Below, piece after piece: positions 1 to 44,922 of a stretch of 64,000 nucleotides of DNA. Numbering within the stretch: the first letter of the stretch is position 1; each line of letters opens with the position of its first letter. The DNA is from Candidatus Saccharimonadales bacterium (GTDB lineage Bacteria > Patescibacteriota > Saccharimonadia > Saccharimonadales > JAGPDM01), in NCBI GenBank assembly GCA_044227985.1, contig JBGAVT010000001.1, positions 6,216 through 70,215 of the forward strand, written 5' to 3'. The position numbers were made by a program, and so were the translations under genes. Below the pieces are notes generated by a model. That model did no database searches, had not been told where the DNA came from, and saw nothing but the letters and a program-made list of their open reading frames with translations.

Positions 1-136
1 CAGCGATTACTTTTTGAGCTGCTTTTTTTGCTTGTTCACGACCAAGGCCAGTCAACTCAACATCGGTTCGACCTGCTACCCAGTCTTCCGCGTTAGCGAT
101 GCTTTCACCATGTCTGATAAAGATAACTTGTTTCAT
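1..136 (-). CDS. Histidine phosphatase (phosphoglycerate mutase-like) family protein, N-terminal fragment; gene continues beyond the window
   Basis: Reverse-complement of 1..136 translates to MKQVIFIRHGESIANAEDWVAGRTDVELTGLGREQAKKAAQKVIA. The RHGES catalytic-His motif is typical of GpmB/histidine phosphatases. ATG at 136-134. Confidence 0.5.
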   Translation of the reverse strand, partial: MKQVIFIRHGESIANAEDWVAGRTDVELTGLGREQAKKAAQKVIA

Positions 137-209
137 GTTAGATGACTATTGTAGCACGCGACGTTTCTTGTTAAGCTTATGCTTGAATAACCGTAATAAG
201 GGTGGAACT

Positions 210-1589
210 ATGCCAAAATCAAAAAACATGTTTGACTACGACTTAATTGTGATTGGCAGCGGAAGTGGTGGTGGTATCGCTGCTCATATTGCCGCTAAAA
301 AAGGTAAAAAAGTAGCAATCTTTGAAAAGCACGACGTTCTCGGTGGTGAATGCCCAAATTGGGCGTGCGTTCCAACCAAAGCTCTTCTACATGCAGCCGA
401 AACCTATCACACAGCAAAAACTGCTTCTCAGTACGGAATATCGATTCAAAATATCTCGATCAACTATCCAAAAGTAAAAGCATGGAAAGATTTGGTTGTT
501 AAACGAACCGGCACCGAACACGGCGACGAAAGCTTCGCTGATTCCGGCATCGCTGTTTATCACGAGAATGCGCGTTTTATCGACAAGGACACAATAACGG
601 CAGGTGGTAAGCGGTTCCGCGCTCGTAAATTTCTGATCGCTAGTGGCACGACTAATTTTATCCCGCCAATTACTGGCTTACTCGATACTGGTTTCCTTAC
701 TTTTTTCGATGCAATTGACCTGACTAAAGCTCCAAGGTCTATCTTTATTATCGGCGGCGGAGCAATTGGCGTTGAGTTTGCTCATTTGTTCAATCGCTTT
801 GATGTCAAAGTAACTTTGCTAGAGGTTGCGCCACAGCTACTAGGCCGCGAAGAGCCGGAAGCAGCTGAGCTGACTAAGGCGGTTCTTGAAAATCGTGGAG
901 TTCGCATCATCACTGGCGGAACGATATTCTCAGTTAAGAAGAACGGCAACAAAAAGATCATCAGTTACAGCGATGGGAAAACCGCCAGTACATTATCCGT
1001 TGATGAAATCTTGGTTGCGGCTGGTAAAAAACCAAATGTTGATCTCGGACTCGAAAACGCAGGTGTAAAATATACGCCACGCGGGATTACCACCAACCGG
1101 TTTATGCAGACAAGTAAGAAGCACATCTTTGCCGCTGGAGATGTAGTCGGACCATATCAATTCACTCATACCGCAAGTTACCAAAGCCGTTTAGCTGGGC
1201 ACAATATGTTCAGTCGTGACAAAAATAAAGTGGCTGTTGATTATTCTGCAATCCCCCGCTGTATTTTCTTTAGCCCAGAGATTGCCAGTGTTGGTCTGAC
1301 TGAACTAGAAGTCCAACGAGCTGGCGTTGCAACCCGGGTAGGACGCGCACCAATTTCTGTAATTGGTAGGAGTAACACTGAGAACCAATCAACAGGCTTT
1401 GTTAAAATCGTTGCTAATAAAAAAGGCCAAATCGTTGGTGCTACGATTGTCGCACCGCGAGCTGGTGAAATGATTCACGAGCTCGGTCTAGCTATCCGAA
1501 TGAAGACAACCGTCGAACAAGTCGCTAGCACAATTCATGCCTTCCCAACTTGGAGTGAAGCTATTCGTGTTGCTGCTGTAGGAATGTAG
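210..1589 (+). CDS. Class-I pyridine nucleotide-disulfide oxidoreductase (dihydrolipoyl dehydrogenase-like flavoprotein)
   Basis: GSGSGG FAD-binding fingerprint; redox-active disulfide GGECPNWACVPTK; second NAD(P) Rossmann GGGAIGVEF; C-terminal dimerisation HAFPTWSEA. ATG at 210 preceded by GGTGG. Upstream part of the long ORF (99..) is probably not translated. Confidence 0.8.
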   Translation: MPKSKNMFDYDLIVIGSGSGGGIAAHIAAKKGKKVAIFEKHDVLGGECPNWACVPTKALLHAAETYHTAKTASQYGISIQNISINYPKVKAWKDLVVKRTGTEHGDESFADSGIAVYHENARFIDKDTITAGGKRFRARKFLIASGTTNFIPPITGLLDTGFLTFFDAIDLTKAPRSIFIIGGGAIGVEFAHLFNRFDVKVTLLEVAPQLLGREEPEAAELTKAVLENRGVRIITGGTIFSVKKNGNKKIISYSDGKTASTLSVDEILVAAGKKPNVDLGLENAGVKYTPRGITTNRFMQTSKKHIFAAGDVVGPYQFTHTASYQSRLAGHNMFSRDKNKVAVDYSAIPRCIFFSPEIASVGLTELEVQRAGVATRVGRAPISVIGRSNTENQSTGFVKIVANKKGQIVGATIVAPRAGEMIHELGLAIRMKTTVEQVASTIHAFPTWSEAIRVAAVGM

Positions 1590-7241: not shown

Positions 7242-7392
7242 TCGTAAAGATTTTTTCATAATTTTAACTTCTCTCAAACTTTTTATGTTTTAAAAACTAT
7301 AATGCTCATGCTTGCAAATTTTATAGCCAAAGGACTAATCTGCTACTTAGGACGGGCTGGGGGTCTCACAAACTAATTAATTGGAGGTCTTT

Positions 7393-8112
7393 ATGACTGA
7401 ACAAACTAGTGCGATAAATATAACCCCTAAACAGCTCATGGCATTCACAGGAGTGATTTTAGCTTTCACTCTTGCCGTAGTTTATCTGACGACTAGTCTT
7501 GTTGTTAACAGCCAGAAAGCTTCGGCAGAACAACAGAATAACAATGGCTCAGCTCCACAATTAGTTGTATCAGAAGGTGCAAACACAGCCAATGGTTGTG
7601 TCGATGTCGATGCCGCTAAAAACACCGACAATGACGACGCAAGTTACAAAGCTGGTGACGTTGTACATTTTGGTGGAAAAAGATACACCGTAATGGGCGT
7701 AGTTCCATCAAGCACCACTCAAATTAATGAAGATAATGATACTCACTACACATCAACCGTTGATAATCGTAATAGTGGAAATACCGACAATCGTAATAGT
7801 CGAAATTCCGATAGTCGATATAGTGGAAATGCACTAACTGATAGTCGTAATAGTGGAAACACCACAACAAATACTGATAATCGAAACCAGGGGAACACCG
7901 ACATCGTAATGCGCAACAACGGCAATACACAAACAGACAACCGTAATAGTGGAAACACCATAACAAATACTGATAATCGAAACCAGGGGAACACTTCAAA
8001 CTCTGGCAACACCGATAGCAGTAATAGTGGAAATACCGATAGTCGATATAGTGGAAATGCACTAAATCTAAACAATGGTAATACTACGAATTCAAATAAC
8101 TTTGAGCTATAA
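7393..8112 (+). CDS. Membrane-anchored or secreted low-complexity repeat protein (N/S/T/D/R-rich)
   Basis: GGAGG RBS then ATG at 7393. N-terminal hydrophobic anchor. C-terminal half is degenerate tandem repeats of about 8 aa (DNRNSGNT / SRYSGNAL). Confidence 0.6.
   Translation: MTEQTSAINITPKQLMAFTGVILAFTLAVVYLTTSLVVNSQKASAEQQNNNGSAPQLVVSEGANTANGCVDVDAAKNTDNDDASYKAGDVVHFGGKRYTVMGVVPSSTTQINEDNDTHYTSTVDNRNSGNTDNRNSRNSDSRYSGNALTDSRNSGNTTTNTDNRNQGNTDIVMRNNGNTQTDNRNSGNTITNTDNRNQGNTSNSGNTDSSNSGNTDSRYSGNALNLNNGNTTNSNNFEL
7750..8090 (+). repeat. Imperfect tandem DNA repeats (about 24-nt units, e.g. gataatcgtaatagtggaaataccgac) inside the repeat-protein gene
   Basis: Directly visible repeated units aatagtggaaa(t/c)acc, gataatcgaaaccaggggaacac (x2) and gatagtcgatatagtggaaatgcactaa (x2). 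Confidence 0.7.
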
Positions 8113-8145: not shown

Positions 8146-8188
8146 AGACAAAAGAGCTCGCGCCAAAACTAGCGCGGGTTCTTTTGTC
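8146..8188. terminator. Bidirectional intrinsic terminator between convergent genes
   Basis: AGCTCGCGC / GCGCGGGTT stem (about 9 bp including G-U) with an 8-nt loop, flanked by A-tract (gacaaaag) and T-tract (ttcttttg). Serves the + strand repeat-protein gene and the - strand ndh gene. Confidence 0.55.
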
Positions 8189-8191
8189 GTA

Positions 8192-9376
8192 TTAGTGTTT
8201 ACAGACTGGGCAAATTTCTTCTTTGGTTAAGCCATAGCGCCAGACACTTACGGCCTTTCTGAGTGGTAAGAATTTTAGATAAAGATGTAAATCCGCTGCT
8301 CGCCGCAACACCCAGCCCAAGCGACCAAATATCATAGTCTCGCCCCAAAGAACTGCCGCCCAATGAGCCCCAACTGGTACAGCATAGATTGGTTTTTTGG
8401 CTTGAAAACTTAACAATGGTTTACCTTTTTGCTCGCGTATGATATTGCTGGCTACAAATCCAGCATGGTTCAAGGCAGTTTGAGCCATGCCACTATATTC
8501 AGTATCAGCAGCATCACCAACTACATAAATATGCGGAGCGCCTTCTAAGCGATTGTTTACAGTAACTCGTTTAAGTTTTCCCAAACCAAAAATATCCTTA
8601 TGTTGAATGAGAAAATGATTATTCTGGGCTCCTGCCGTCCATACTACTGTATGCGTTTTGATGTTCTTATTAGGCAATTGAATCTCCTCTGCAGTTTTGG
8701 ACTTAACCGCAGTATTGAGTAGAATTTTAACGCCAATTTCTTTTAATCGTTTTTCGACTTTTTGAGAAAATTTTTCTGGTAAATTCCCCAGAACCCGACT
8801 TCCAGCTTCAACTAAATAAATCGAATAGCTCATGTTTTTTAAACCATGCATTTTACGAATTTTTTCCAAATAGTAGACCATCTCAGCCGATAGCTCAACG
8901 CCAGTTGCGCCAGCGCCAACAACTACATAGGCTGCTTCCTTGTATTGACCAGCTAAGTGATCGTGGAGGTGTCTTTTCAGACGCAAAGCTTCTTGTATCG
9001 TTTTTACACCTAACGCATGCTCTTCGAGCCCCTCAATACCATAGAATGCTGTGCTATTACCGAGCGCAAGTATCAACTCATCATAATGGTAGTTTGCTCC
9101 CGACTCACCTGCTAAACTTTGGCTCTTTTCGTCAATACCCAGTGCTTTATCTTTTACGACTTCGATGTTCTTAGCATAAGAAAAGAACTCTTCCAACGGA
9201 ATTGCAACTTCCAGTGGAGAGCGTCCAGTGGCTGAACGGTATAGAGCTGCATGATATTCGAAATAGCTCGATGGCGATATCAAAACAACTTTTATGCCCT
9301 TAGTATTAGCTAGTTTAAGAGCTGCGTATACGCCGGCGAAACCTGCGCCAGCGATAACTACTTTTTTTTGGTTCAA
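8192..9376 (-). CDS. ndh: Type II NADH dehydrogenase (NDH-2), FAD-dependent
   Basis: Two dinucleotide folds, KKVVIAGAGFAGVYAA and AAYVVVGAGATGVELSAE. Preferred start is TTG at 9376 (AGGAGA RBS 6 nt upstream), giving MNQKKVVIAGAG. It overlaps the TGA of the upstream FAD-oxidase gene (TTGA). The ORF track's longer start at 9412 has no RBS. Confidence 0.8.
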   Translation of the reverse strand: MNQKKVVIAGAGFAGVYAALKLANTKGIKVVLISPSSYFEYHAALYRSATGRSPLEVAIPLEEFFSYAKNIEVVKDKALGIDEKSQSLAGESGANYHYDELILALGNSTAFYGIEGLEEHALGVKTIQEALRLKRHLHDHLAGQYKEAAYVVVGAGATGVELSAEMVYYLEKIRKMHGLKNMSYSIYLVEAGSRVLGNLPEKFSQKVEKRLKEIGVKILLNTAVKSKTAEEIQLPNKNIKTHTVVWTAGAQNNHFLIQHKDIFGLGKLKRVTVNNRLEGAPHIYVVGDAADTEYSGMAQTALNHAGFVASNIIREQKGKPLLSFQAKKPIYAVPVGAHWAAVLWGETMIFGRLGWVLRRAADLHLYLKFLPLRKAVSVWRYGLTKEEICPVCKH

Positions 9377-11031
9377 AATTTTCTCCTGATATGATTCTTT
9401 GAATATTCCCAATTAGCATCAGTTTTTTTATGTGGGTTAAAAATATTATTTGGATCAAAGATATACTTAGTTTGCTCGAATAATTTATAAACTTCCTGAC
9501 CGTACATTTTTTCCAAAAATGGACCACGAATCATACCATCATTGTGCTCACCCGAAATAACTCCATCGTAACTTTTGACAAGTTCAATAACCTCTCTGAG
9601 ACATGGCTCTATCTTTTCTCGTTCAGATTCAAGCGATAAATCCATTAAAGGGATGATATGAAAATTTCCATCACCGAGATGTCCAGCAATCGTATATACG
9701 AATTTGTATTTTTTCATAATTGCTTTAATTTTCGGTAGAAAATCTGGTAGATGCTCAGGGGGTACTAATATATCGTCAATGAACGGTGCGGTGTGAAGGT
9801 TCCCTTTGATATTTTTACGTAGTAGATTAAAGCTTTCACGGCGCATTATCCAGAATCTTTCCGCTCTACTCTCAGTATCCGCTTTCTCCGTTGTGATTTT
9901 CCAGCCTTTCGCATCAATCTCTTGTTTCAGATTTTCAACTTTTTGCTTTATAACATCTGGATCGTCGTCGTCAAAGCTAGCCATAAAAATTAAAATTGGT
10001 TTACCACGAAGAAGTATAAATGCATCAGGGATTAGACTAATTGCGAGCTTAAACAAGCCCAACCAACCTAAACTATGACGAAATTTCAGAAAGAAACGAA
10101 AGGCGAACCTTAAAGTATGTTCATCGAATCCCTCAATTGCAGTTGGATTATGTTTTCGCAAGATCTCAATAATTTCTCCTAGGTTATCAGTACTGCGTGC
10201 GTAACCTGCCAACACGCCAGAATGCTTTTTAGCATTAACTAGCCGAAAGGTTGTTTCAGTTATTAGACCAAGGGTACCTTGTGAGCCAACCAGAAGCTGC
10301 GACAAATCGAAAGTCCCAGCTTCTTTATCCCAAATATCCCATAATGTATGGCCAGTAGAATTTTTAGTTACGTTAGGTTTAGCATCTTGTATAAGTTCGT
10401 AGTTTTGATCAAGTAGTTTGTGCATTGCACGATAAATACTACCTTCAAAATCGTCTTGGCTGAGTTTTTCTTTGAGCTCTTGTTCGTTAAGCGCTCTAAA
10501 ACTGTATTCTTTACCATCATGCAGGACTGCTCTTAGGCTAGTTACAAATTTCTCAACTTTTCCGTAAACCAGTGACTTTTCACCACCAGCATCGTTTGCG
10601 ACCATACCACCAATTGCACAGATATCCTTCGAAGCCGGATATGCTGGCATAATTTTATTCTTCTCGAGTGTTACCTTTTCAAAATCACGATACCATACAC
10701 CTGGCTGCGAAGTAATCATATTTCCTGCGACATCGTCCAAATGATTCATATATTTCTCAAAAACAACTATAATTGAGTCATTGATAGATCCACCAGACAT
10801 ATCAGTTCCACCACTTCTGGCCGTGATAGACAAGCTCTTATCTTCTGATTTGTGTGAGTTTACCCAATCCACTATTGCCTCGACATCTTTAGTGTCTTTT
10901 GGATAAACAACTACCTGTGGCTTGATTTCAAATAAACTAGTATCATGCGAATATTTCTCAAGCGTTGCATCATCATTTTTAACATCGCCACTTATAACCG
11001 AAGTTAGGTGCGTAACATCTGTATTATCCAT
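9373..11031 (-). CDS. FAD-linked oxidase (GlcD / D-lactate dehydrogenase-like FAD-binding oxidoreductase)
   Basis: FAD-binding PCMH-type domain (…VVVYPKDTKDVEAIVDWVN…SITARSGGTDMSGGS…) and C-terminal FAD-oxidase domain. 552 aa. Confidence 0.8.
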   Translation of the reverse strand: MDNTDVTHLTSVISGDVKNDDATLEKYSHDTSLFEIKPQVVVYPKDTKDVEAIVDWVNSHKSEDKSLSITARSGGTDMSGGSINDSIIVVFEKYMNHLDDVAGNMITSQPGVWYRDFEKVTLEKNKIMPAYPASKDICAIGGMVANDAGGEKSLVYGKVEKFVTSLRAVLHDGKEYSFRALNEQELKEKLSQDDFEGSIYRAMHKLLDQNYELIQDAKPNVTKNSTGHTLWDIWDKEAGTFDLSQLLVGSQGTLGLITETTFRLVNAKKHSGVLAGYARSTDNLGEIIEILRKHNPTAIEGFDEHTLRFAFRFFLKFRHSLGWLGLFKLAISLIPDAFILLRGKPILIFMASFDDDDPDVIKQKVENLKQEIDAKGWKITTEKADTESRAERFWIMRRESFNLLRKNIKGNLHTAPFIDDILVPPEHLPDFLPKIKAIMKKYKFVYTIAGHLGDGNFHIIPLMDLSLESEREKIEPCLREVIELVKSYDGVISGEHNDGMIRGPFLEKMYGQEVYKLFEQTKYIFDPNNIFNPHKKTDANWEYSKNHIRRKF

Positions 11032-11059
11032 TAAAAGTCCTTTTCTTGTAGTCGGATTG

Positions 11060-11596
11060 TTATCTCAAAAAAGGATAATTTTTTACAAGTTTAGTTTGTG
11101 ACCACCACTTTCCTATGCCAAGCTGTTGCTGATCGTTCACCAAAAGAAGTCCTACTAATGCGAAGATATAAACAATATGTTCATCTATAATTGGGTTATT
11201 TTCAGGTAGTAACGTCGATGACCACATCATAAGCATCAGTAATACACCACTGATTGTGGCAATTCTCATACCAATTCCAAGCAGCAGGGCAATCCCAAGT
11301 CCAAGTAGTGCAGCCATAAAAAGTAGATCGATAAACCAATTACCTGCCAAAGACTGATAGAATTCAGCCAACGGACCATCAGTAGCAAACTTGAGAAATC
11401 CTTCTGTTGCAGAGCCCCCTGCGATTACTGACTTCTCGCATGCAACTGCCACTACCCCAGCTTCATCTCGGCAGGTCGAAAATCCAAGGCCAAAATACTT
11501 ATCAAGAAATGCCCACATAAATATAAAACCAAGTGACAGTCGAACCAAAGCCCAAGCATAATTTGCTTTTAGATTACCTTTTATCTTTTTTTTCAT
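11060..11596 (-). CDS. DoxX-family integral membrane protein
   Basis: About 4 TM helices with the DoxX-like pattern (…ALVRLSLGFIFMWAFLDK…). 178 aa. Confidence 0.5.
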   Translation of the reverse strand: MKKKIKGNLKANYAWALVRLSLGFIFMWAFLDKYFGLGFSTCRDEAGVVAVACEKSVIAGGSATEGFLKFATDGPLAEFYQSLAGNWFIDLLFMAALLGLGIALLLGIGMRIATISGVLLMLMMWSSTLLPENNPIIDEHIVYIFALVGLLLVNDQQQLGIGKWWSQTKLVKNYPFLR

Positions 11597-11662
11597 ATAA
11601 TTTTTTCCTATTTAACTTGCTAATGCTAATCGTAGCATAATCACACGATGAAAACTGTGACT

Positions 11663-12319
11663 TTAATCACGCTTATTTAATTCGATTTCTAGTTTATCTT
11701 TACTGTAAATATATACGTGATTTTTTTTGATCTCTACCAAGCCTTTATCTTGTAATTCATGAATAATACGACTGGTGGTTTCACGGCTTAGGCCAGCACG
11801 AGCTGCTAATTCTGTTATTGTTAACTCCAAATGCACCCCACCATTGTTTTGGCTGATCCCAAAACGAGCAAGCTGTATTAATAACTCTTGTAGTAGGCGA
11901 GTTTTTCCACTTCCGCCCATAAGTTGGCACATTCTTTCCAGTACCCCATCAGTTCCACGCAATAATCTGCTGATGATGTCTAGTAATACTTCATTATCTG
12001 ATTGTAAGAATTCAAGCACTTCTTCACTATCAGAGATCTTAAGCTGAACGTCACCAACTGCCTGGTAGCAGTATTTATTTGTGGTTTGGTTAAATAGATA
12101 TGATAACGAAAAATAGCTGCCAGGTTTAAAAACATTTGTAACTATTTCACTACCTGACAATGAGATATCGAATTGTCTGACATTGCCAGCTTTAATAAAA
12201 TATATAAATTTAGGCTGTTCGTAGGGCTGTATAATACACTGGCGATTGCTGAAACAAATGGATTTTTTATTGTTAAAAAAAGTACTAATCTTATCCTGCG
12301 CACTCAATAACTGGCTCAT
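11663..12319 (-). CDS. Crp/Fnr-family transcriptional regulator
   Basis: N-terminal cNMP-binding beta-barrel; C-terminal HTH LTITELAARAGLSRETTSRIIHELQDKGLV. Confidence 0.8.
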   Translation of the reverse strand: MSQLLSAQDKISTFFNNKKSICFSNRQCIIQPYEQPKFIYFIKAGNVRQFDISLSGSEIVTNVFKPGSYFSLSYLFNQTTNKYCYQAVGDVQLKISDSEEVLEFLQSDNEVLLDIISRLLRGTDGVLERMCQLMGGSGKTRLLQELLIQLARFGISQNNGGVHLELTITELAARAGLSRETTSRIIHELQDKGLVEIKKNHVYIYSKDKLEIELNKRD

Positions 12320-12360
12320 ACTAACTCAAGTATACTGCTTTCTCCTAGTTAGCAAAAGTT

Positions 12361-13680
12361 CTAACCGAAACGGAATTTTTCGATGTGTATAAGCTGTGAG
12401 CTCACACCAAACTCAATCAATTCTATTTTAAGTTTATCGATCATATCAACTGGACCACAAAGCCAAACCTCTCGCATCTTTAAATCAGCAACATATGTTT
12501 TTAATAAATCACCAGAAATATATTCCCCCTTCTGGACTCCCTTCGGTCGGCTAAGAACTGGTAAGATCTTAGCGTTCGTGTTTTTTAGCTCATCAAGCAG
12601 GACTAAATCTTCATCTGTTTGAGCACCGTAGACTAAGATATCATCGATGGTGCTCCATTCCTGTAGCATGGCATTGATCGGTGTAATACCTATACCTCCT
12701 GCGATGAATAACCTTTTCTTGCTGCTACATGGTTTTTCGAATATACCATATGGACCCTGAATCATTACTCTTGTGCCAGTTTTGACCGATTGAATCCGCA
12801 CTGAACCGTTGCCAATGTTTTTCACAGTGATACGTAGATGTTTATCGCCTGGAGCGCTTGAAATGGTAAATGGATGTGGCTGCCACCATAGTCCTGGTTC
12901 AAAAAAGCGCCACATTGCGAACTGTCCAGCATCATACTTGAAGCTATCTAGATTATCCCCAGCGATATATATAGAACTAACGTTCCCATTCTCTTTTTCT
13001 ATTTTATCGACGCGAAAATTATACTTTCTATATAGAACTGCCGGGATAATATATCGGAACAAAATGATACCCCCAAGAGCAACAATATAAAGACCAATCC
13101 AGGCAAATTTGAAGATCGCGAAACGACCAAGAGCATTACCTGCTTGAACCTGATGAAAAACCGGTAATAGAATTGAAAGGTACGCCAAGAAATGAATCCC
13201 ATGCCACAACTCATACGGCAGTTTTTTTCGGACCATGACGATACTAGTAATTATTACTACCAAAAATGATACCCAAGCCACACCTGCCAATAAGTAATAT
13301 ACCTCGGAAGTGACTAGTGAAAGATACTGTGAAACGAAATTAGTTATTGGACTATCAGCTCGAAGAAGATATCCGAAGACCATCAAAACAATGTGGGCGA
13401 AGATGAAGAAGAATGCAACTTTGCCATTCGCGGCATGAGCACTAGACAATCTGTCCAAACCAAATTTGCTCTCAATGAATTTACCACTACCAATTAAAAA
13501 TAGTTGCGTTAATAGTAGGTAGCTAGCTGTGAATCCACTAAGCGCTGCTAGGGAAATCAATACTTCAGATAGTTGACTTCCACTGAAGCGGAACGAATAT
13601 GTCGCCATCCAGAAGCCAGTAATTACGAGCAAGCTGCAAAGCCACAGCCCATACAGTATGTTTCTTGATATTTTATTCAT
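12361..13680 (-). CDS. Ferric-reductase-domain flavocytochrome (bacterial NOX/FRE-like NAD(P)H oxidoreductase)
   Basis: Six-TM N-terminal domain with paired His in two helices (…FAHIVLMVFGYLL…; …WHGIHFLAYLSILLPVFHQ…). FAD-binding HPFTISS and NAD-binding GGIGITP motifs in the C-terminal dehydrogenase domain. Confidence 0.75.
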   Translation of the reverse strand: MNKISRNILYGLWLCSLLVITGFWMATYSFRFSGSQLSEVLISLAALSGFTASYLLLTQLFLIGSGKFIESKFGLDRLSSAHAANGKVAFFFIFAHIVLMVFGYLLRADSPITNFVSQYLSLVTSEVYYLLAGVAWVSFLVVIITSIVMVRKKLPYELWHGIHFLAYLSILLPVFHQVQAGNALGRFAIFKFAWIGLYIVALGGIILFRYIIPAVLYRKYNFRVDKIEKENGNVSSIYIAGDNLDSFKYDAGQFAMWRFFEPGLWWQPHPFTISSAPGDKHLRITVKNIGNGSVRIQSVKTGTRVMIQGPYGIFEKPCSSKKRLFIAGGIGITPINAMLQEWSTIDDILVYGAQTDEDLVLLDELKNTNAKILPVLSRPKGVQKGEYISGDLLKTYVADLKMREVWLCGPVDMIDKLKIELIEFGVSSQLIHIEKFRFG

Positions 13681-13726
13681 CGAAAGTATCCTCGCTATTA
13701 TTTGTTAATGAATCTATACTTACTAA

Positions 13727-14134
13727 ATGCGAAAAACTTATATCGTTGGATTAGTTTTTGTACTTACAATAGCAGTCAGCGGAACTGCATTCTATCTAGG
13801 AAGCCAAAGCTCACCTAACACTCAGACTACAACCAATCAATCACCGAAACAATCATCGAATAAAACTGGAAATAGTCCAACTGACACTAATAAGACTATA
13901 TCACTTAGTGAAATTAAAAATCATGACAACCAAGATGATTGCTGGATGGCTATAAATGGAATTGTTTATAATCCAACTGATTACATAAACCAACATCCTG
14001 GTGGTAATGACATACTAGAGGGTTGTGGCGTCGATGCAACTAAACTTTTCAAAAATCGCTCAGGCGAAGGTCCACACTCATCATTTGCTAATGACTTACT
14101 CGCTGAGTATAAAATAGGTACTTTACAACAGTAA
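13727..14134 (+). CDS. Membrane-anchored cytochrome b5-like heme-binding protein
   Basis: N-terminal TM, linker, then a cytochrome b5 domain with the HPGG heme-ligand motif (DCWMAINGIVYNPTDYINQHPGGNDIL). Confidence 0.75.
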   Translation: MRKTYIVGLVFVLTIAVSGTAFYLGSQSSPNTQTTTNQSPKQSSNKTGNSPTDTNKTISLSEIKNHDNQDDCWMAINGIVYNPTDYINQHPGGNDILEGCGVDATKLFKNRSGEGPHSSFANDLLAEYKIGTLQQ

Positions 14135-16001: not shown

Positions 16002-17516
16002 TTATCCGAGAGATTTTCTAATACCTGCAGCCCGCAGGATGTCACCATTGGTATCAGTATTTTCTTCAGAAGTAATTCCATAGTAAATATTAGAGCTAAG
16101 ATTCTTATGAATCATATGGCTTGTTTTATCCGGACCAACTTCAATACCAAGGATTTTTTCAGCTAAAGCAATGTCGTTTTTAATCAGCTTCCAGTCAGAG
16201 TTCTGAGAAATTAAAAGTTCTAAATTATCACGATTTAAATAATGTCCGGCATGGATAATATCACGACGAAGGTTCTTGTAAATATCATCTATCAGCTCAA
16301 GCATTCCATCCTTTTCTGCCTGTTGTAGGGCTCGGCCAAGTCCAATAAATTCGGGTGGCATCCCAATGCTGTATAACGAACCTGTGAACTTTATTGCTCG
16401 GGGCAACGTAACTTTACCCATGCCACGGAAATAACCGCTGAGACCAACGTGCTGGACGCGCTCGCGATGGCTTGGAATCTTGGAAGCAATTTTGTTGATC
16501 AATGGTGCAATTGATTCGACACTGGCTTGATAGAATTTTTTGGCTTTAGCATTAAAAGCTTTTATTCGTTTAGCCTCCTCAAGAGTTATTCTGCGATAAT
16601 CATCTTGTATTTTAGGAATCTCCTCGTTGAGTCGTTTGATGGCTGCAACTACTTGATCTTTGTGGTAATCATAACGGAAAGCACTCTGCACCGTCACCGA
16701 GCTCAAACCTTTATATTCCTCAAGCACGGCATCAATATTCTCAGGATTTATACCACCACGAAATGGCAGACTACCACCGCCAATCCATGGGTGAATGGCA
16801 ATATCATGCTTTTCACCGAAGGCGTGATATGAAGAAATTGCTGACTTTACCGCTAGCATACACGGTAGCAAACCCGCATCCATAGCAGGGTCAGAGCGCG
16901 CAAGAAAAACACGCAGATACTCTGGCTTATGCTTAAACTCTTTTTGTAAGAAAGCTACATATTCTTCAAGAATACTATCAGCTTCCGCCATCGTACCAAC
17001 CTCTTCGAATAATGGAATGATATTCAAGACATTAAAACTCGACTCAGCATCAAACATGTCGTTACTAGCTTTGATTATTTTACTGAATTTCTTCTGAAGA
17101 TAGATTAATTGATCAGCTCGTTTTGTCATCGGTAGTATAACTTCGAAAAGTGGCTTTTCTGACATCTTCATTTGACGAGCTGCATGCTCTGCAGAAATAA
17201 GGTTAATAAATGCACGTGGCAAACGATGCGATGGTTCTTCCCATATATTAGGGATTCGAAAGGTTAGAAATAATTCTTTTCCAAGAGGATGCTTTTTAAA
17301 ATAATCATGATGTTCCTGAAACATACGATCTATGACTGCCTCATCAACGAACTTGCCTTCCCAATCCCACATATATTCGTGAACACCAAGCTCAGAGAAA
17401 CAACGATAACATTCTTCGATTTCTTCACTGGCTGATACAAACGGTGAATTACCAAAATATGGTGCCCGTGAATTGTCCGGATGCTGGGTTGCCATTGTTA
17501 CAGGAATTTTTCGCAT
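16002..17516 (-). CDS. ppcA: Archaeal-type phosphoenolpyruvate carboxylase (PpcA-type)
   Basis: About 504 aa with the archaeal-type signature N-terminus IPVTMATQHPDN, unlike the roughly 900-aa bacterial Ppc. Confidence 0.8.
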   Translation of the reverse strand: MRKIPVTMATQHPDNSRAPYFGNSPFVSASEEIEECYRCFSELGVHEYMWDWEGKFVDEAVIDRMFQEHHDYFKKHPLGKELFLTFRIPNIWEEPSHRLPRAFINLISAEHAARQMKMSEKPLFEVILPMTKRADQLIYLQKKFSKIIKASNDMFDAESSFNVLNIIPLFEEVGTMAEADSILEEYVAFLQKEFKHKPEYLRVFLARSDPAMDAGLLPCMLAVKSAISSYHAFGEKHDIAIHPWIGGGSLPFRGGINPENIDAVLEEYKGLSSVTVQSAFRYDYHKDQVVAAIKRLNEEIPKIQDDYRRITLEEAKRIKAFNAKAKKFYQASVESIAPLINKIASKIPSHRERVQHVGLSGYFRGMGKVTLPRAIKFTGSLYSIGMPPEFIGLGRALQQAEKDGMLELIDDIYKNLRRDIIHAGHYLNRDNLELLISQNSDWKLIKNDIALAEKILGIEVGPDKTSHMIHKNLSSNIYYGITSEENTDTNGDILRAAGIRKSLG

Positions 17517-39601: not shown

Positions 39602-40399
39602 CTAATACAGGAAGTATATGTTAGCTTTTGTTTGAATCAACTTATCCCGAATTAGCCCTTCCAGGGCCTCTTCCAACCGTTGATCAAAAAACTCGTGTTC
39701 AAGTTGTGTCAGGCTTTGCGGACCTCTGGAAACAAAACGAAGAATGCCTGCTCTAAGCTGTCGAGTACTTCCCACAAATGTTGATTGCTTGGTATATACA
39801 CTAGCCTTCCTATGTGTTGTAAGGCCTTGTTTTTTAAGCGATGTGCCATAGTCCATCAAAGCCCAGTACCATTCGCGCGGGTTATCATGATTAAGCACTT
39901 CGATGACTTTAGATAATATCTCTTTTTCACTAGTCTTATCTTTATCAGCAAAAAAATGATGAATTATGACTGTCCGAATATTTGTTTCCACAAAGCCAAT
40001 AGGTAGATTCTTTGAATATACAAGAATTGCAGCGGCAGTATTGTAGCCTATGCCTGGAAGCTCACTAAGCAATTTCGGATCCGTAGGCGTTTCTACATCC
40101 CAGTTACGCCTGCAGATTTCTTTGGCTGATTGATGGATAAAACGAGCACGACGATAGTAACCAAGCCCCTGCCATGCGCTAACGACATCCGCTTGGGTGG
40201 CCCGTGCAAGCGTAACTACACTAGGAAACTTTTGCAAAAAACTTCGGTAATGATCAACAACCCGTGGTGCCTGTGTTTGCTGTAACATAATTTCGCTCAC
40301 AAGGATTTTGTAAAAATCTGTTGTACTACGCCAAGGAAAGTCTCGTTTACTATGTCTATAAAATGCCCATACGAGATTATGGAAGCTAGAGACGGTCAT
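39602..40399 (-). CDS. HhH-GPD DNA glycosylase, MutY/adenine-glycosylase-like, lacking the 4Fe-4S cysteine loop
   Basis: SEIMLQQTQ motif, helix-hairpin-helix LPGIGYNTAAAIL, catalytic D. No C-x6-C-x2-C-x5-C cluster in the C-terminus. Overlaps tyrA by 14 nt. Confidence 0.65.
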   Translation of the reverse strand: MTVSSFHNLVWAFYRHSKRDFPWRSTTDFYKILVSEIMLQQTQAPRVVDHYRSFLQKFPSVVTLARATQADVVSAWQGLGYYRRARFIHQSAKEICRRNWDVETPTDPKLLSELPGIGYNTAAAILVYSKNLPIGFVETNIRTVIIHHFFADKDKTSEKEILSKVIEVLNHDNPREWYWALMDYGTSLKKQGLTTHRKASVYTKQSTFVGSTRQLRAGILRFVSRGPQSLTQLEHEFFDQRLEEALEGLIRDKLIQTKANIYFLY

Positions 40400-41135
40400 G
40401 AATTTGCTGTGCTTGATCCAAAAAACGCTTTCGGACTTCTGAGGCGTACGGATTGGCAGATTCCACCGTCAGGAACAAAGCGTCAGAATGTTGTTTTTCC
40501 TGTTCAGCTAGCGCAAGAAGTTTTTTATAGTAACCGGTAGTCAGAGAGGCTTCAGAAACACCGAGTTCAAGTAGACTTCGTCCAATAAAAAATGTAAGGC
40601 CTTGAATGGTAGCCATCTGTCTATCATGCTCCATTGGAGAAATTTCGACTACTTCACCTCCTTTTTCATCGATAATCGAAGTTAGCGTCTTTGTCCAAGG
40701 CGTTTGACGAAGTTCGTGGAAGACCCATTGGCGACTCTTCAGATCACCGCCTGTACTTTGGGGTCCGAACAATGGGTGGCTAGCAATCAGTCCGACATCT
40801 TCGGAGAAAGTTCGTAACATAATCTCACTCGGTCGCTCCTTAACCGAAAGTACGTCGATTATTGTAGCTCCAGGTTGAACGATTGGCGCAAGTTGTTGGC
40901 ATACAATTTCGAAATCAGAAAATGGGACTGCAATCCAGATCAAGTCTGCCTTGCCTGCCATCTCAAGATTAACTCTCGTTGTTTTTGCGCCCTCGAATTG
41001 GCTATCATTAGGATCAACCGCAACAACTGATTGGAACCCAAAGCTTTCAAGAACATGCGCTAATAATTGTCCAAATGGCCCAAAACCAACTATCGAAGTA
41101 GTCGATTGTTTTAGGTTAGGAAGTTGGCTGCTCAT
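40386..41135 (-). CDS. tyrA: Prephenate (or arogenate) dehydrogenase
   Basis: NAD Rossmann IVGFGPFGQLLAHVL, TyrA core (…IASHPLFGPQS…). Confidence 0.8.
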   Translation of the reverse strand: MSSQLPNLKQSTTSIVGFGPFGQLLAHVLESFGFQSVVAVDPNDSQFEGAKTTRVNLEMAGKADLIWIAVPFSDFEIVCQQLAPIVQPGATIIDVLSVKERPSEIMLRTFSEDVGLIASHPLFGPQSTGGDLKSRQWVFHELRQTPWTKTLTSIIDEKGGEVVEISPMEHDRQMATIQGLTFFIGRSLLELGVSEASLTTGYYKKLLALAEQEKQHSDALFLTVESANPYASEVRKRFLDQAQQIHDRL

Positions 41136-41140
41136 ACGTT

Positions 41141-42055
41141 TTAAATTTTTGTTAGCCAGTTGTCGCTTAATTCGTGTTCACCACGAACAATGGCTTCAAA
41201 ACTATCACTAATCTGCTTAGTTATTTTTCCGGGAGTTTGGCTAATTTCACGTCGATCAATTCCTGCTACCCATGAAACCTTAGCAGCGGTACCTGTCACA
41301 AAGGCTTCTTCAGCAGTATATAGTTGACTACGACGGATAGGGCTTTCTTCGATCGGTATGTTATGCAGCGCTGCCAGCTCAACCACACAGCGGCGAGTTA
41401 TGCCTTCGAGTAAATCTCCGCCTAGACCTGGTGTCAGTAACACACCATGACGAACAATAAATAAATTCATGACTGCGCCTTCGCCGACATCACCCTTATG
41501 ATCAAGCATAATAGCGCTGTCAAAGCCGTTTGCCTGAGCCTCTTCAATCGCCATTGCTGCATTGATGTAAGCACCTGAAGCTTTGGCTTTAGCAGGGATA
41601 GCGTTGTCCGGCACCCGAATCCAACTACTGGTAGCAAGCTGCAATCCTTTACTACTATCGAGGTAATCCTCAAGATTCATAACATATACCGCTAACTGAT
41701 ATTCACCTGAGATCTTAGGTCCAAGTGCTATATCAGATCGATAGATAAATGGTCGTATATAGATATCCTGGTTTGGGTTATTAGCCTTCACAGTATCACT
41801 GATAATATGAGCTAATTTATCGGCAGTCAGTTTGTATGGAAAACCAAGAATCTTAACACTTTCGATCATACGCTTGGCATGATCAGCTAATCGCAGGATT
41901 GCCACAGAGCCATCAGCTTGTTTGTAGCCACGGAGTCCAGCAAATGTAGCTATAGCATACTGCAACCCTGCTGTAGCAATTGGTACATTTGCATTCTTGA
42001 AGTCGATAATCTCACCTTCAAAATATGCTTTTTCTAAATAATCATTATGCGTCAT
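41141..42055 (-). CDS. Class-IV (fold type IV) aminotransferase, BCAT-like; probable aromatic/branched-chain aminotransferase
   Basis: GLQYAIATFAGLRGY (BCAT Y-x-x-x-x-F-E-G-x-R pattern), …EAFVTGTAAKV… (class-IV PLP lysine region). Confidence 0.75.
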   Translation of the reverse strand: MTHNDYLEKAYFEGEIIDFKNANVPIATAGLQYAIATFAGLRGYKQADGSVAILRLADHAKRMIESVKILGFPYKLTADKLAHIISDTVKANNPNQDIYIRPFIYRSDIALGPKISGEYQLAVYVMNLEDYLDSSKGLQLATSSWIRVPDNAIPAKAKASGAYINAAMAIEEAQANGFDSAIMLDHKGDVGEGAVMNLFIVRHGVLLTPGLGGDLLEGITRRCVVELAALHNIPIEESPIRRSQLYTAEEAFVTGTAAKVSWVAGIDRREISQTPGKITKQISDSFEAIVRGEHELSDNWLTKI

Positions 42056-42345
42056 TTCCGTAACTCCTCAATTTCTGCTTCAATTGCCATCTCATGAAGC
42101 GTATCCCAAATCGTATCAATCCGTCGAATTGAAAGTTTATGTTTTGCAGCTAATTGCCGCTGTTTTTGCATGACCTTTTTCCATCGAGCAAGATTCTTAA
42201 TGGGAAGTTTATGTTTATGTTTAATAATCGCTACTTGCTTTACCGCTTTTTGTCGCTTCACCAAAAGACTCATCAGAGTCGTGTCAATTTGGTCAATCTC
42301 ATGACGTAAATCTGCTAATTCTTTCGGTTCTCTCATGCTACCCAT
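42052..42345 (-). CDS. Chorismate mutase (AroQ class, monofunctional)
   Basis: LRHEIDQIDTTLMSLLVKRQKAVKQVAIIK… is the AroQ helical signature. 97 aa. Confidence 0.8.
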   Translation of the reverse strand: MGSMREPKELADLRHEIDQIDTTLMSLLVKRQKAVKQVAIIKHKHKLPIKNLARWKKVMQKQRQLAAKHKLSIRRIDTIWDTLHEMAIEAEIEELRK

Positions 42346-42381
42346 GATAGCACAAATCCTTTCAATTTTATGATGTAGTAA

Positions 42382-43464
42382 CTAAAGTTTACGTGCATTT
42401 TGTTGCAAAAGTGCATCAAGCAATACAATAGCCATCATAGCCTCAACAATTGGCACCGCTCGTGGCAACACTGCAGGGTCATGACGACCTTTAAGATTCT
42501 CTAACGTAACCTCGTTACCGTCACTATCGACAGTATTTTGAGTTTTTAAAACTGTTGAGGTTGGCTTAAAGGCTACATTGCACACAATCGGCTCACCATT
42601 GCTGATACCGCCCTGCACACCACCTGAATTATTTGTTTTTGTGCCGATTTTACCTTTTTTAGCAACAAACTCATCATTGTGCTCAAGCCCTGTCATACGA
42701 GTTCCGCCAAAACCGCTACCAATTTCAAAACCCTTAGTAGCGTTGATTGAAAGCATCGCCTTTGCTAGCTCAGCTTCAAGTCGGTCATAAACTGGTTCAC
42801 CTAGACCAACAGGAACATTTCGAGCGACAACCGTGATCACACCACCGACAGAGTTTCCATCCTGTTTCATCCGTTTAACTAGCTCAATCATCTTTTCAGC
42901 CGCAACAGGATCAGCACAACGGACAATATTAGCTTCTACGTTATCTCGAGTAAATGAATCAACATCAAGCTCAGCGGTAATTTCGTGGATTTGTTTAACA
43001 CTGGCAACAATCTCAATACCATTTTGAATCAAAATTTTGCGAGCTATCGCACCAGCCATAATTCTGGCTACAGTTTCACGAGCACTGCTACGTCCACCAC
43101 CCGCAACCGCACGTCGACCGTACTTCTGCTCATAAGTAAAATCTGCATGACTGGGTCGATAGACTTTTGCGAGATTGCCATAATCCTGAGAACGTTGATC
43201 TTTATTACGAATGAGCATGGCAATCGGCGAGCCGAGTGTGATTCCTTCGGAAATTCCAGATAGAATTTCTACCTGATCTGGTTCATCTCTGTCTGTTGTA
43301 ACAACACTTTGGCCAGGTCGACGGCGATCAAGTTCAACTTGAATATCTTCTAGAGATATCTCAATCCCGGCAGGGCAACCGTCAATAACAACACCGACTC
43401 CAGCCCCGTGACTCTCACCAAAACTAGTAATTTGATACAAATTTCCAAAACTATTTCCGGGCAT
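42382..43464 (-). CDS. aroC: Chorismate synthase
   Basis: [18 protein letters not shown]…; AGAGG core. ATG at 43464 with AGAGGAG RBS 7 nt upstream. Confidence 0.9.
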
Positions 43465-43465
43465 A

Positions 43466-44134
43466 TTATTCTCCTCTTTCAATTACTTCTAGCATAGCAT
43501 CAACGCTCATTTGACCCGGAGCAACACTTGAACCAGTTGCGACAAACATTAATGCACTACCTCTTTTCAATGCCTCAACTCGCAGACCATCATCATCACC
43601 GCTCATAGGGATCAATGCAAAATTTTGTTTTGGATAATCTGTAAATAAACTAAATAATCGAGCAGACTCAGCGCTGGAGCTCACCCGACAAGCAATTTTA
43701 ATGATCGATGGACTATGCTGTTTAGCAATTTCTATAAGATCATTCAGCTTTTGCATAGTCGGCGTTCGTTCAAAATTATGATACGACAATAGTCTTTTTT
43801 CTTGAACTATTTTTTCTACTAGCATTTTATTTGAGATATCAATATCGATGTAAATAGTATTTTTGAGCCCAGATAATTCCTGTAATAATCGAGTGCGTTT
43901 GTCTTCATCCCCATCGAACCTCCCGCCTTCATTTACGCTTCGGAGTGTTACTATAACTTTCTGTCGAACTAGTTTAATTGCTTCAACAATGGCTTGCTCA
44001 TTAAGCTTATTCAAATAATCAAGACGCCATTCAACTAACAAAATTTCTTCGGGTAGCTGGCGAAACTGCTCAAGGCTTACAACAATTGTTGACTCTGCGA
44101 CCACACCGACAATTCGATCTACTAGTTGGCTCAT
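43466..44134 (-). CDS. aroD: 3-dehydroquinate dehydratase, type I
   Basis: Type-I TIM-barrel pattern (…VVSLEQ…VEWRLDYL…TLRSVNEGG…YIDIDIS…). Confidence 0.8.
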
Positions 44135-44922
44135 TGTCCGATCGCCTCACGCATAACTTGTTGTGGGGCATCTCTTCCAGTAAAAATTCGAAACTGCTCA
44201 TAAGCTTGTGCGAGTAGCAATTCATAACCAGAAATTGTTGAGGCTCCAATATGTTTCGCCTGTTGTACCAATACGGTCTCAGGTGGCTTATAAATCGATT
44301 CGAATACAAGCTGGTCGGGATTTAAAAATTTTACATCAATCGGTGTTTCATTGACAAGCTCCGCCATTCCAACACTTGTAGTATTAATTATCGTGTCTAT
44401 ATCTTCGGTGTCATCAATCTCAGTAATAACATTTATCCCCGGGAAATCTTGTCGTAATTTTTGAAGTCGGCTGACTGTTCGATTATAAACAAGCACCTCA
44501 AGCGGCTCGGAGTGAAGCGCTGCGTAAACAGCAGCACGAGCGGCACCGCCAGCACCAAGAATCAAAACCCGCTTTGCTCGCAATCCATCGACAGCATTTA
44601 ACGGTCGGCTATACCCAAGCCAATCCGTATTACTGCCAATCCAGCGATTATTTCTTTTTACCATTGTGTTAGCAACACCAATATTTCTAGCAGCATGATC
44701 AAGTTCGTCGGCTACTTCGTATGCTAGCGCTTTCAATGGCATTGTAACGCTAAAACCATCGAAATTAGTAGCCTCAGAGCTCCACCACTTACGGAAATCA
44801 TCCTCCGTGACCTGAACTGCTGTATAGTTGGCAGAGATGCCGAGCGCGGCAAATCCTGCACTGTGAATTATTGGTGACAAGCTATGTTCAACTGGATTTC
44901 CAATGACTGCAAACCGTCTCAT
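44131..44922 (-). CDS. aroE: Shikimate dehydrogenase
   Basis: FAVIGNPVEHSLSPIIHSAGF…, NADP Rossmann ILGAGGAARA. Confidence 0.85.
   Translation of the reverse strand: MRRFAVIGNPVEHSLSPIIHSAGFAALGISANYTAVQVTEDDFRKWWSSEATNFDGFSVTMPLKALAYEVADELDHAARNIGVANTMVKRNNRWIGSNTDWLGYSRPLNAVDGLRAKRVLILGAGGAARAAVYAALHSEPLEVLVYNRTVSRLQKLRQDFPGINVITEIDDTEDIDTIINTTSVGMAELVNETPIDVKFLNPDQLVFESIYKPPETVLVQQAKHIGASTISGYELLLAQAYEQFRIFTGRDAPQQVMREAIGQ

Follow-up and report, generated by a model that had tools for sequence, protein, structure and literature searches.

A SpNOX-like flavocytochrome gene and an adjacent cytochrome b5 gene form a recurrent pair within a composite redox locus of a Saccharimonadales bacterium

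The DNA analysed in this study is a 64,000-nucleotide stretch of a Candidatus Saccharimonadales bacterium (GenBank assembly GCA_044227985.1, contig JBGAVT010000001.1, positions 6,216 to 70,215 of the forward strand), hereafter called the window, and coordinates are those of the window unless preceded by a locus number. Positions 8192 to 14134 contain six genes, encoding a flavocytochrome related to NADPH oxidases (NOX), a cytochrome b5, a Crp/Fnr-family regulator, a DoxX-like membrane protein, a FAD-linked dehydrogenase and an NDH-2-like flavoprotein. In a preliminary description, these genes had been regarded as one dedicated redox island. This idea needs to be corrected, as the six-gene arrangement is local to this species; on balance, we favour the reading that the locus is a composite, the conserved core of which is a two-gene electron-export pair consisting of NOX and b5. 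The b5/NOX pair itself is genuine and recurs in other genomes; it represents an as yet uncharacterised form of transmembrane electron-export system, the general type of which is known.

The NOX gene (12361..13680, minus strand) encodes a SpNOX-type flavocytochrome b of 439 amino acids with the domains PF01794 (Ferric_reduct), PF08022 (FAD_binding_8) and PF00175 (NAD_binding_1). Its membrane part comprises six transmembrane (TM) helices with two bis-histidine (bis-His) haem sites (H82/H163, inner; H96/H176, outer), and its C-terminal cytoplasmic domain carries the FAD motif HPFTI and the NAD(P)H motif GIGITP; the strings HPFTISS and GGIGITP mentioned in the preliminary description, as well as HPGG in b5, are all present. 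In an alignment of 40 NOX sequences, both His pairs (H82-X13-H96 and H163-X12-H176) are invariant, so that the haem-ligand spacing on which the NOX assignment depended is conserved. Also invariant in this alignment are H269, P270 and F271 of the FAD motif (residues 269–273, matching H[PSA]F[TS][LIMV]) and G329, G331, T333 and P334 of the NAD(P)H motif (residues 329–334). The window NOX therefore has every feature that served Hajjar et al. (2017; PMC5676040) as a filter for bacterial NOX proteins, namely the FAD motif, the NAD(P)H motif and two His-X12/14-His pairs.

The best PDB sequence match of the window NOX is SpNOX, the NOX of Streptococcus pneumoniae (8qt6/8qq7, E 1e-25). An AlphaFold2 model (pLDDT 91.6, pTM 0.86) displays six long helices with short outer loops and places the His pairs on helices 75–107 and 157–180, and the top Foldseek match of this model is again SpNOX (8qt6, TM-score 0.69/0.75), followed by NOX2, DUOX1 and NOX5. 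SpNOX is thus the closest relative in both sequence and fold, sharing the six TM helices, the two bis-His haems on TM3 and TM5, the domain with HPFTI and GIGITP, and the short outer loops. The two proteins are only about 24% identical, and whereas the window NOX has a linked b5 that is predicted to be exported, SpNOX has no known partner; the SpNOX homologues of S. pseudopneumoniae and S. mitis (L078 and L084) likewise have no adjacent b5 gene. With the window protein, the bacterial NOX or 'MsrQ-like' family gains a new member.

The canonical O2 reaction centre at the outer haem of NOX proteins consists of two His residues, an Arg and a propionate (PMC11564096). On inspection of the sequence, such a centre is not evident in the window NOX, because the His residues in the membrane domain (H82, H96, H160, H163 and H176 are the only ones in residues 1–220) are the four haem ligands and H160, which lies on the inner side; the outer half contains no non-ligand His. 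SpNOX likewise lacks the canonical centre, and its outer haem is solvent-exposed, as in MsrQ. Under anoxia, SpNOX reduces cytochrome c directly and faster than O2, and its authors considered that O2 is perhaps not the physiological acceptor and that a protein acceptor is possible (PMC11564096).

The b5 gene (13727..14134, plus strand; 135 amino acids; Pfam Cyt-b5 E 1.6e-19) is divergent from NOX, and a spacer of 46 bp, read directly from the sequence, separates the two start codons (13681..13726). Its product consists of an N-terminal hydrophobic anchor or signal (residues ~3–24), a linker of ~34 residues rich in Ser, Thr, Asn, Gln and Pro, and a bis-His domain with the His ligands of HPGG and PHSS and a conserved Cys pair (C72 and C100). 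The score against PF00173 is 70.1 bits (gathering cut-off, 23.7), with both axial His present. The best PDB match and best structural relative is 1CXY, the bacterial cytochrome b558 of Ectothiorhodospira vacuolata (E 1.1e-16), with which both His align at the ligand positions, together with both Cys. The protein of 1CXY is soluble, whereas the window b5 retains a long hydrophobic N-terminus and linker and is therefore probably membrane-tethered. An identity as a MAPR-like, Tyr-ligated cytb5MY was rejected, as both His ligands are retained and the best structural matches of the window b5 are classical b5 proteins.

When the window b5 was aligned with 15 other NOX-linked b5 proteins, both Cys and the second His ligand were found to be kept in all of them and the first His ligand in all but that of L073. 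Of the 16 NOX-linked b5 proteins, that of L089 is truncated N-terminally by a frameshift; the 15 intact ones all possess a hydrophobic N-terminus followed by a low-complexity linker rich in Ser, Thr, Pro, Asn and Gln, and the N-termini of the gammaproteobacterial proteins resemble cleavable signal peptides. In L089 (3811-4255), the anchor and the b5 domain are in different reading frames owing either to a low-coverage assembly error or to real pseudogenisation. A protein word-index search with b5 yielded a single match, 99% identical, and was uninformative on relatives. From its sequence, the haem domain of the window b5 is predicted to be membrane-tethered and probably to face outwards. An outward-facing b5 haem beside the exposed outer haem of a SpNOX-like protein is the arrangement expected for an electron donor and its acceptor.

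The distribution of the pair was surveyed in the 80 best NOX loci from a scan in which each GTDB species was represented by one genome; these loci were picked through a single peptide pattern, and in them b5 relatives were recovered by phmmer and jackhmmer searches of six-frame open reading frames (ORFs). An immediately adjacent b5 gene was identified in 12 of the 80 loci, and a stand-alone b5 beside a bacterial NOX, which had been described as unusual, is thus a recurring arrangement. In these 12 loci the two genes are mostly co-directional, with b5 mainly downstream (upstream in L023), and several b5 start codons overlap or directly abut the NOX stop codon. The divergent order was found in the window, in L086–L088, in L089 (NOX identity 79%), in L090 (49%) and in L001 and L002 (48%). 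Three gene orders (divergent, b5 upstream and b5 downstream) therefore exist. All confident b5 genes in the surveyed NOX flanks abut NOX, and the b5-linked NOX genes are spread over several separate branches of a rough neighbour-joining tree. The record titles of the 12 loci name Saccharibacteria, Paceibacterota, Buchananbacteria and Collierbacteria within the candidate phyla radiation (CPR), and Pacearchaeota, Woesearchaeota, Marinimicrobium, Porticoccaceae and Cellvibrionaceae outside it, besides one unclassified bacterium, so that the labels span CPR, DPANN archaea and Gammaproteobacteria. Indirect support for the non-CPR labels comes from GC content, from the MtrB typical of Gram-negative bacteria in L077 and from the type II secretion genes in L072; the DPANN labels of two loci could not be checked.

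A conserved third gene 3' of NOX-b5 was sought in the CPR and DPANN loci, but the genes at this position are inconsistent (TrmB, rubrerythrin, VTT/DedA, DUF4352 and NYN), with a rubrerythrin gene next after the pair in L069. Genes for VTT/DedA-domain membrane proteins were observed close to NOX-b5 in two unrelated loci, L047:1272-1883 (labelled Pacearchaeota) and L052:7557-8159 (labelled Buchananbacteria). A Cellvibrionaceae metagenome-assembled genome (MAG) encodes a Crp/Fnr-family regulator of 286 amino acids ~2 kb from NOX-b5 (L080:3872-4732), echoing the Crp gene of the window.

Co-localisation of genes for b5 and a putative ferric reductase (pFre) in CPR is already known. In a preprint from 2021, PF00173 was located within 10 kb of PF01794 in 185 of 1427 PF01794-carrying CPR genomes, and a CPR membrane complex of unknown function was proposed (bioRxiv 10.1101/2021.11.17.468889). 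The window shows a comparable pairing, likewise in a member of the CPR superphylum. The focus of the preprint is on the Tyr-ligated, MAPR-like cytb5MY and on two-component regulators, whereas the window b5 is bis-His and has a Crp gene in its neighbourhood; moreover, the pairing was stated there to be absent outside CPR, whereas here it is also present in loci labelled DPANN and Gammaproteobacteria. New in the present analysis are these loci and the predicted b558-type, bis-His nature and outward topology of b5, together with an MtrAB operon and a complementary distribution of ApbE and b5.

The MtrAB operon is located in a Porticoccaceae MAG (PABE01000135.1, GC 0.61; L077:5359-9964) and comprises, in this order, genes for NOX, a b5 with a signal peptide, an MtrA-like cytochrome and an MtrB/PioB porin; a TauE-family gene follows. 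The NOX/b5 and b5/MtrA junctions are both ATGA overlaps, indicative of translational coupling. The MtrA-like protein is a decahaem cytochrome (10 CXXCH motifs; Paired_CXXCH_1 E 2e-34), and the porin matches MtrB/PioB with an E value of 5e-83. The encoded proteins make up an unbroken path leading from NAD(P)H in the cytoplasm to the outside of the cell, and the operon lends support to the extracellular electron transfer (EET) suggested in the preliminary description. In the chromosome of Stieleria magnilauensis (L070:5071-7269), a gene for an MtrC/MtrF-like cytochrome with seven CXXCH motifs lies immediately upstream of NOX, a further case of an exported cytochrome encoded beside a NOX.

An iterative search seeded with the ApbE of L098 recovered this locus and 19 of the 80 surveyed loci, which lie within L007–L039 (e.g. 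L010:7409-8371) and in which ApbE is encoded directly downstream of NOX; they derive from Actinomycetes, Solirubrobacterales, Chloroflexia, Dormibacteria and others. None of the loci contains both ApbE and b5, against ~2.9 expected from 19 and 12 occurrences among 80 (hypergeometric P ~0.03, without correction for phylogeny). The greatest similarity of the window NOX (~35% identity) is to the NOX proteins of Actinomycetes, Dormibacteraceae and Chloroflexia, most of which have ApbE downstream. No ApbE gene was found in the 64-kb window by the iterative search, an FMN-binding gene not having been searched for separately. For the 'MsrQ-like' flavinylation-associated systems, Meheust et al. (2021; PMC8238504) proposed that NAD(P)H supplies electrons, through a protein with PF01794 and PF00175, to an extracytosolic protein that is flavinylated. 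The window pair resembles such systems in having a PF01794 protein with a C-terminal PF00175 domain and an extracytosolic redox partner encoded next door, and differs from them in that their partner is an FMN-binding protein flavinylated by ApbE and that of the window is a haem protein. Most simply, one kind of transmembrane electron exporter driven by NAD(P)H would have alternative partners at its outer face, namely b5 in some loci and the flavinylated protein in others. EET of the flavin-based Listeria type was rejected for the window, as only NDH-2 is shared and no ApbE/FmnB homologue is present; EetA, EetB and PplA were not searched for.

From this arrangement we infer that electrons are transferred from NOX to b5 and further to an external acceptor. 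NAD(P)H in the cytoplasm would donate a hydride to the FAD of NOX; NOX would then pass single electrons across the membrane from the inner to the outer b-haem and reduce the neighbouring b5. Fixed to the outside of the membrane by its N-terminal anchor and flexible linker of ~34 residues, the tethered b5 would deliver the electrons to an external acceptor, for which Fe(III), O2 or reactive oxygen species (ROS), and a surface or host redox protein are candidates. In this way, NAD(P)+ would be regenerated without a respiratory chain in a quinone-poor, fermentative episymbiont. The genes for Crp, DoxX, the FAD dehydrogenase and NDH-2 are linked to NOX-b5 in this species only and may be co-transcribed, with possible control of downstream units through a CRP-type site upstream of DoxX. 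A broader proposal, which we put forward tentatively and with clearly less confidence, is that SpNOX-type flavocytochromes might be the cytoplasmic-membrane entry of a quinone-independent export route, running from NAD(P)H through NOX and an exported b5 and ending either at an external acceptor or at a conduit in the surface or outer membrane (in Gammaproteobacteria, MtrAB).

Several observations weigh against the reading of NOX-b5 as an electron-export pair. Adjacency of the two genes is in itself no proof of electron transfer. No b5 is present in 68 of the 80 NOX loci or in the close Saccharibacteria relatives L003, L005 and L097, and NOX can therefore work without b5. In the clade of the window, the pair is divergent and not operonic, and the 46-bp spacer revealed no regulatory site common to both genes; promoter-like matches in the spacer region are no commoner than in shuffled sequences. 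Saccharibacteria have been reported to lack haem and quinone synthesis and to scavenge both cofactors (PMC6031116), so that the three b-haems would need to be taken up from elsewhere and b5 would have to acquire its haem extracellularly. The link to MtrAB stems from a single MAG contig, and the DPANN and Gammaproteobacteria labels were taken from MAG records and loosely checked by GC content and neighbouring genes. Finally, the glutaredoxin, thioredoxin-reductase-like and MarR genes found around related NOX genes (see below) and the rubrerythrin gene of L069 fit an oxidative-stress role equally well.

All six ORFs of the presumed island were confirmed, and the domain calls were retained for five of them (NDH-2, GlcD-type FAD dehydrogenase, Crp regulator, NOX-type flavocytochrome and cytochrome b5). 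A role in electron transfer, which had been assigned to all six genes, was upheld for five. NOX is not divergent from the other genes as had been stated: the order on the minus strand is NOX-Crp-DoxX-FAD dehydrogenase-NDH-2, with short gaps between co-directional genes (28–66 bp), and b5 alone is divergent. The full arrangement was found only in a contig of the same species (L086), and co-conservation thus applies to NOX and b5 but not to the six genes as a unit. In this contig (L086:4438-5659), NDH-2 is split into two ORFs by either a low-coverage assembly error or real pseudogenisation. Since NOX-b5, FAD dehydrogenase-NDH-2, Crp and DoxX are found in separate contexts elsewhere, the island amounts to a b5/NOX pair, a dehydrogenase/NDH-2 pair and two mobile neighbours (Crp and DoxX) that lie side by side in this species. 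Co-transcription of the five minus-strand genes in the window is possible, because the gaps are short and one terminator-like hairpin is located after NDH-2. This hairpin (8159..8176, minus strand; GC-rich stem CGCGCTAGTTTTGGCGCG followed by the T-run AGCTCTTTTG) lies 16 nt after the NDH-2 stop codon and probably marks the end of a transcription unit, although such sites are no commoner in the sequence than in shuffles.

NOX genes at 41–49% identity to that of the window lie among genes for glutaredoxin, thioredoxin-reductase-like, MarR and pyrophosphatase proteins in L001, L003, L090 and L097. A glutaredoxin/thioredoxin-reductase-like/MarR block recurs at L001:1395-8326, L003:5222-8341 and L097:4714-7940, and a related context with MarR, disulfide-reductase and glutaredoxin genes surrounds the NOX gene of L005 (41%). 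These neighbourhoods suggest a thiol or oxidative-stress context for the Saccharibacteria NOX clade. The window itself encodes a flavoprotein disulfide reductase of 496 amino acids (99-1589, plus strand; Pyr_redox_2 and Pyr_redox_dim) ~7 kb from the island, and a similar gene is found near NOX in L005.

The FAD-linked D-2-hydroxyacid dehydrogenase of the VAO/GlcD family (9373..11031, minus strand; 552 amino acids; FAD_binding_4 and FAD-oxidase_C) scores 196 bits against the NCBIfam model of GlcD (cut-off, 568) and 275 bits against that of YdiJ (cut-off, 1350; N-terminal half only). It is thus, as judged from sequence, a member of the GlcD/YdiJ family, not an equivalog, and is predicted to be of the D-lactate, glycolate or D-2-hydroxyglutarate type; its PDB relatives are glycolate oxidase, LctD and D-LDH. 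Orthologues are widespread at 53–67% identity, the named ones being labelled Saccharimonadales, and a metagenome scan with the protein returned just two short contigs. The NDH-2-like flavoprotein gene (minus strand; Pyr_redox_2 E 3.5e-41) extends over 8192-9412 in the mechanical ORF list, with a TTG start at 9412, and likely over 8192..9376, with a TTG start 12 codons later. At the junction ...AGGAGAAAATTTTGAAC..., the dehydrogenase stop codon TGA occupies 9375-9373, the TTG at 9376-9374 opens the NDH-2 frame, and the sequence AGGAG (9387-9383) is located 6 nt upstream of this TTG. The TTGA stop/start overlap previously pointed out is therefore real, and the two genes are regarded as translationally coupled. 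The best PDB relatives of NDH-2 are YjlD (E 3.6e-33), the C. thermarum protein 4nwz (E 9e-29) and S. aureus NDH-2. Pyr_redox_2 and Pyr_redox domains and the motifs GAGFAG and GAGATG place it in the NDH-2 family, as a putative type II NADH:quinone oxidoreductase. NDH-2 directly follows the FAD dehydrogenase in L093 (again with a TTGA overlap) and L091 (2-nt gap), both without NOX or b5, and the FAD dehydrogenase gene is present without NDH-2 in L094–L096. NDH-2 and FNR-family regulators of Saccharibacteria have already been described (PMC6031116).

The DoxX/DoxD-like polytopic membrane protein (11060..11596, minus strand; 178 amino acids) has no Pfam match at E<=0.01, its score on DoxX (PF07681) being below the threshold (16.8 bits, E 0.011; cut-off, 23.6). 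The original DoxX call is thus weak; indirect support comes from homology (phmmer E 3e-6) to a protein of L028 that itself scores 32.1 bits on DoxX and from the JGI name 'thiosulfate dehydrogenase [quinone] large subunit'. The L028 gene lies directly upstream of a Patescibacteria NOX.

The Crp/Fnr-family regulator (11663..12319, minus strand; 218 amino acids; HTH_Crp_2 E 1.4e-12 and cNMP_binding E 7e-9) has a CRP-like recognition helix (SRETTSR). The [4Fe-4S] pattern of FNR comprises an N-terminal Cys cluster (C-X2-C-X5-C) and a fourth Cys. The window protein contains C22, C28, C83 and C131, without C-X2-C, and none of these is kept in the L093 homologue, which is 29% identical and encoded beside the FAD dehydrogenase-NDH-2 pair. 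The non-conserved Cys speak against FNR-like O2 sensing, and the suggested role of the regulator as an O2 or redox sensor is not borne out.

A Crp/Fnr-type palindrome had been anticipated in the intergenic regions 12320-12360 and 13681-13726; neither contains one at <=2 mismatches to TGTGA-N6-TCACA, and only short unrelated inverted repeats were found there. The sole match with <=1 mismatch in the 64 kb is TGTGACTTTAATCACG (11656..11671), which overlaps the Crp stop codon and is centred ~67 nt upstream of the DoxX ATG. About 2.35 such sites are expected by chance per 64 kb, and at least one was present in 92 of 100 shuffles. The palindrome was therefore rejected as strong evidence, and its position alone is suggestive. 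It is identical in the same-species locus L086, and the orthologous promoter of L093 has only a site with two mismatches. It may be a candidate operator for DoxX-FAD dehydrogenase-NDH-2. A perfect palindrome, TGTGATCTACATCACA, is located upstream of a small DUF5670 gene at L096:11902-11917; a Crp-family protein is likewise encoded in this Saccharimonadales genome, and CRP-type sites may therefore be used in this order.

Adjoining NDH-2, a plus-strand gene (7381-8112) encodes a protein of 243 amino acids with an N-terminal TM segment, Asn/Ser/Thr/Gly-rich repeats and a weak CBM_5_12 match; it contains 2.8 copies of a 24-bp repeat unit at 7765-7830. An archaeal-type phosphoenolpyruvate carboxylase (16002-17516, minus strand; PEPcase_2, E 6e-137) adjoins enolase, and this arrangement is kept in L089. 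A run of minus-strand genes at 40386-44922 encodes prephenate dehydrogenase, a class IV aminotransferase, chorismate synthase, type I dehydroquinase and shikimate dehydrogenase, which is seemingly much aromatic amino-acid biosynthesis for a CPR genome. Chorismate is also a precursor of quinones. No respiratory oxidase genes were detected among ~37 window ORFs scanned with Pfam, ORFs past 44922 not having been scanned.

Among other explanations of the locus, NOX could be a genuine NAD(P)H oxidase that converts O2 to superoxide or H2O2, consuming O2 or acting on the host, with b5 being incidental or modulatory. SpNOX does oxidise NADPH with O2 in vitro, the window NOX has the motifs of the same family, most NOX loci lack b5, and the glutaredoxin/thioredoxin-reductase-like/MarR neighbourhoods in Saccharibacteria, as well as the rubrerythrin gene adjoining the pair in L069, suggest an oxygen or ROS context. 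This explanation nevertheless leaves the repeated coupling to exported b5 and the MtrAB operon unaccounted for, the window NOX has no non-ligand His near the outer haem, and SpNOX, its closest structure, lacks the canonical O2 centre, its authors doubting O2 as the physiological acceptor; we consider this explanation unlikely. Somewhat less probable again is an assimilatory ferric reductase, in which the outward b5 would reduce Fe(III) chelates for uptake in the manner of eukaryotic FRE. The family name and the FRE precedent speak for such a role, 153 MsrQ-like clusters are associated with VIT1 iron transporters (PMC8238504), and the MtrAB proteins of L077 are a metal-facing conduit. No iron transporter or Fur-type element was, however, seen beside the pair in the window or close relatives, and SpNOX is a very poor direct ferric reductase (PMC11564096); this role would in any case be a special case of electron export through NOX-b5, from which it differs solely in the terminal acceptor.

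We regard with the same degree of doubt the possibility that the six genes form one Crp-controlled, quinone-linked module, in which the dehydrogenases would reduce a scavenged quinone, DoxX and the TM domain of NOX would handle the quinol, and NOX-b5 would be terminal. Consistent with such a module are the five closely spaced co-directional genes ahead of a single hairpin, the palindrome upstream of DoxX, the proximity of a Crp homologue to FAD dehydrogenase-NDH-2 in L093 and of a DoxX protein to NOX in L028, the fact that MsrQ, a relative of the NOX TM domain, draws electrons from quinol, and the quinone scavenging proposed for Saccharibacteria (PMC6031116). Yet the arrangement occurs in the same species only, NOX-b5 and FAD dehydrogenase-NDH-2 are separate in all other relatives examined, the palindrome lacks significance across the window, and NOX, having its own NAD(P)H domain, needs no quinol. 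It is most improbable that the adjacency of b5 and NOX is without functional meaning and reflects inherited synteny or chance in small genomes: the sample is small, was chosen via a single peptide pattern and is not phylogeny-corrected, but the pair occurs in three gene orders, in separate NOX lineages and in unrelated phyla, with stop/start overlaps in several loci and without any confident flanking b5 gene that does not abut NOX, and it has been reported independently from CPR genomes (bioRxiv 10.1101/2021.11.17.468889).

Electron export by NOX-b5 has parallels in other known systems. In MsrQ-MsrP (E. coli YedZ-YedY), a dihaem membrane protein of the FRD fold likewise reduces a specific periplasmic partner via an exposed outer haem; MsrQ has no fused dehydrogenase and draws on quinol, and its partner is a molybdoenzyme rather than a cytochrome. 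MtrCAB and PioAB are related to the pair through L077, in which NOX-b5 shares an operon with MtrA-like and MtrB-like genes, whereas the classical Mtr system is fed by quinol dehydrogenases such as CymA and the window contains no Mtr genes. Saccharibacteria have been imaged as Gram-positive-like (PMC6031116), and an outer-membrane conduit is therefore not expected in them.

Which acceptor bacterial NOX homologues use physiologically, and what role they play, is an openly acknowledged question (PMC11564096). The recurrent coupling to a gene for an exported b5, together with the MtrAB operon, names a concrete candidate partner for NOX and renders this question testable with two recombinant proteins. 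Saccharibacteria and other CPR bacteria are considered to be fermenters that synthesise neither quinone nor haem, and for them the pair would represent a minimal means of NAD(P)H re-oxidation outside a respiratory chain. If this is true, bacterial NOX homologues would gain the physiological protein acceptor that was predicted, but not identified, by the structural work on SpNOX, and a tethered b5 would allow quinone- and haem-auxotrophic episymbionts (CPR, and DPANN if the labels hold) to dispose of the reducing equivalents of fermentation on O2, on Fe(III) or on the surface of the host.

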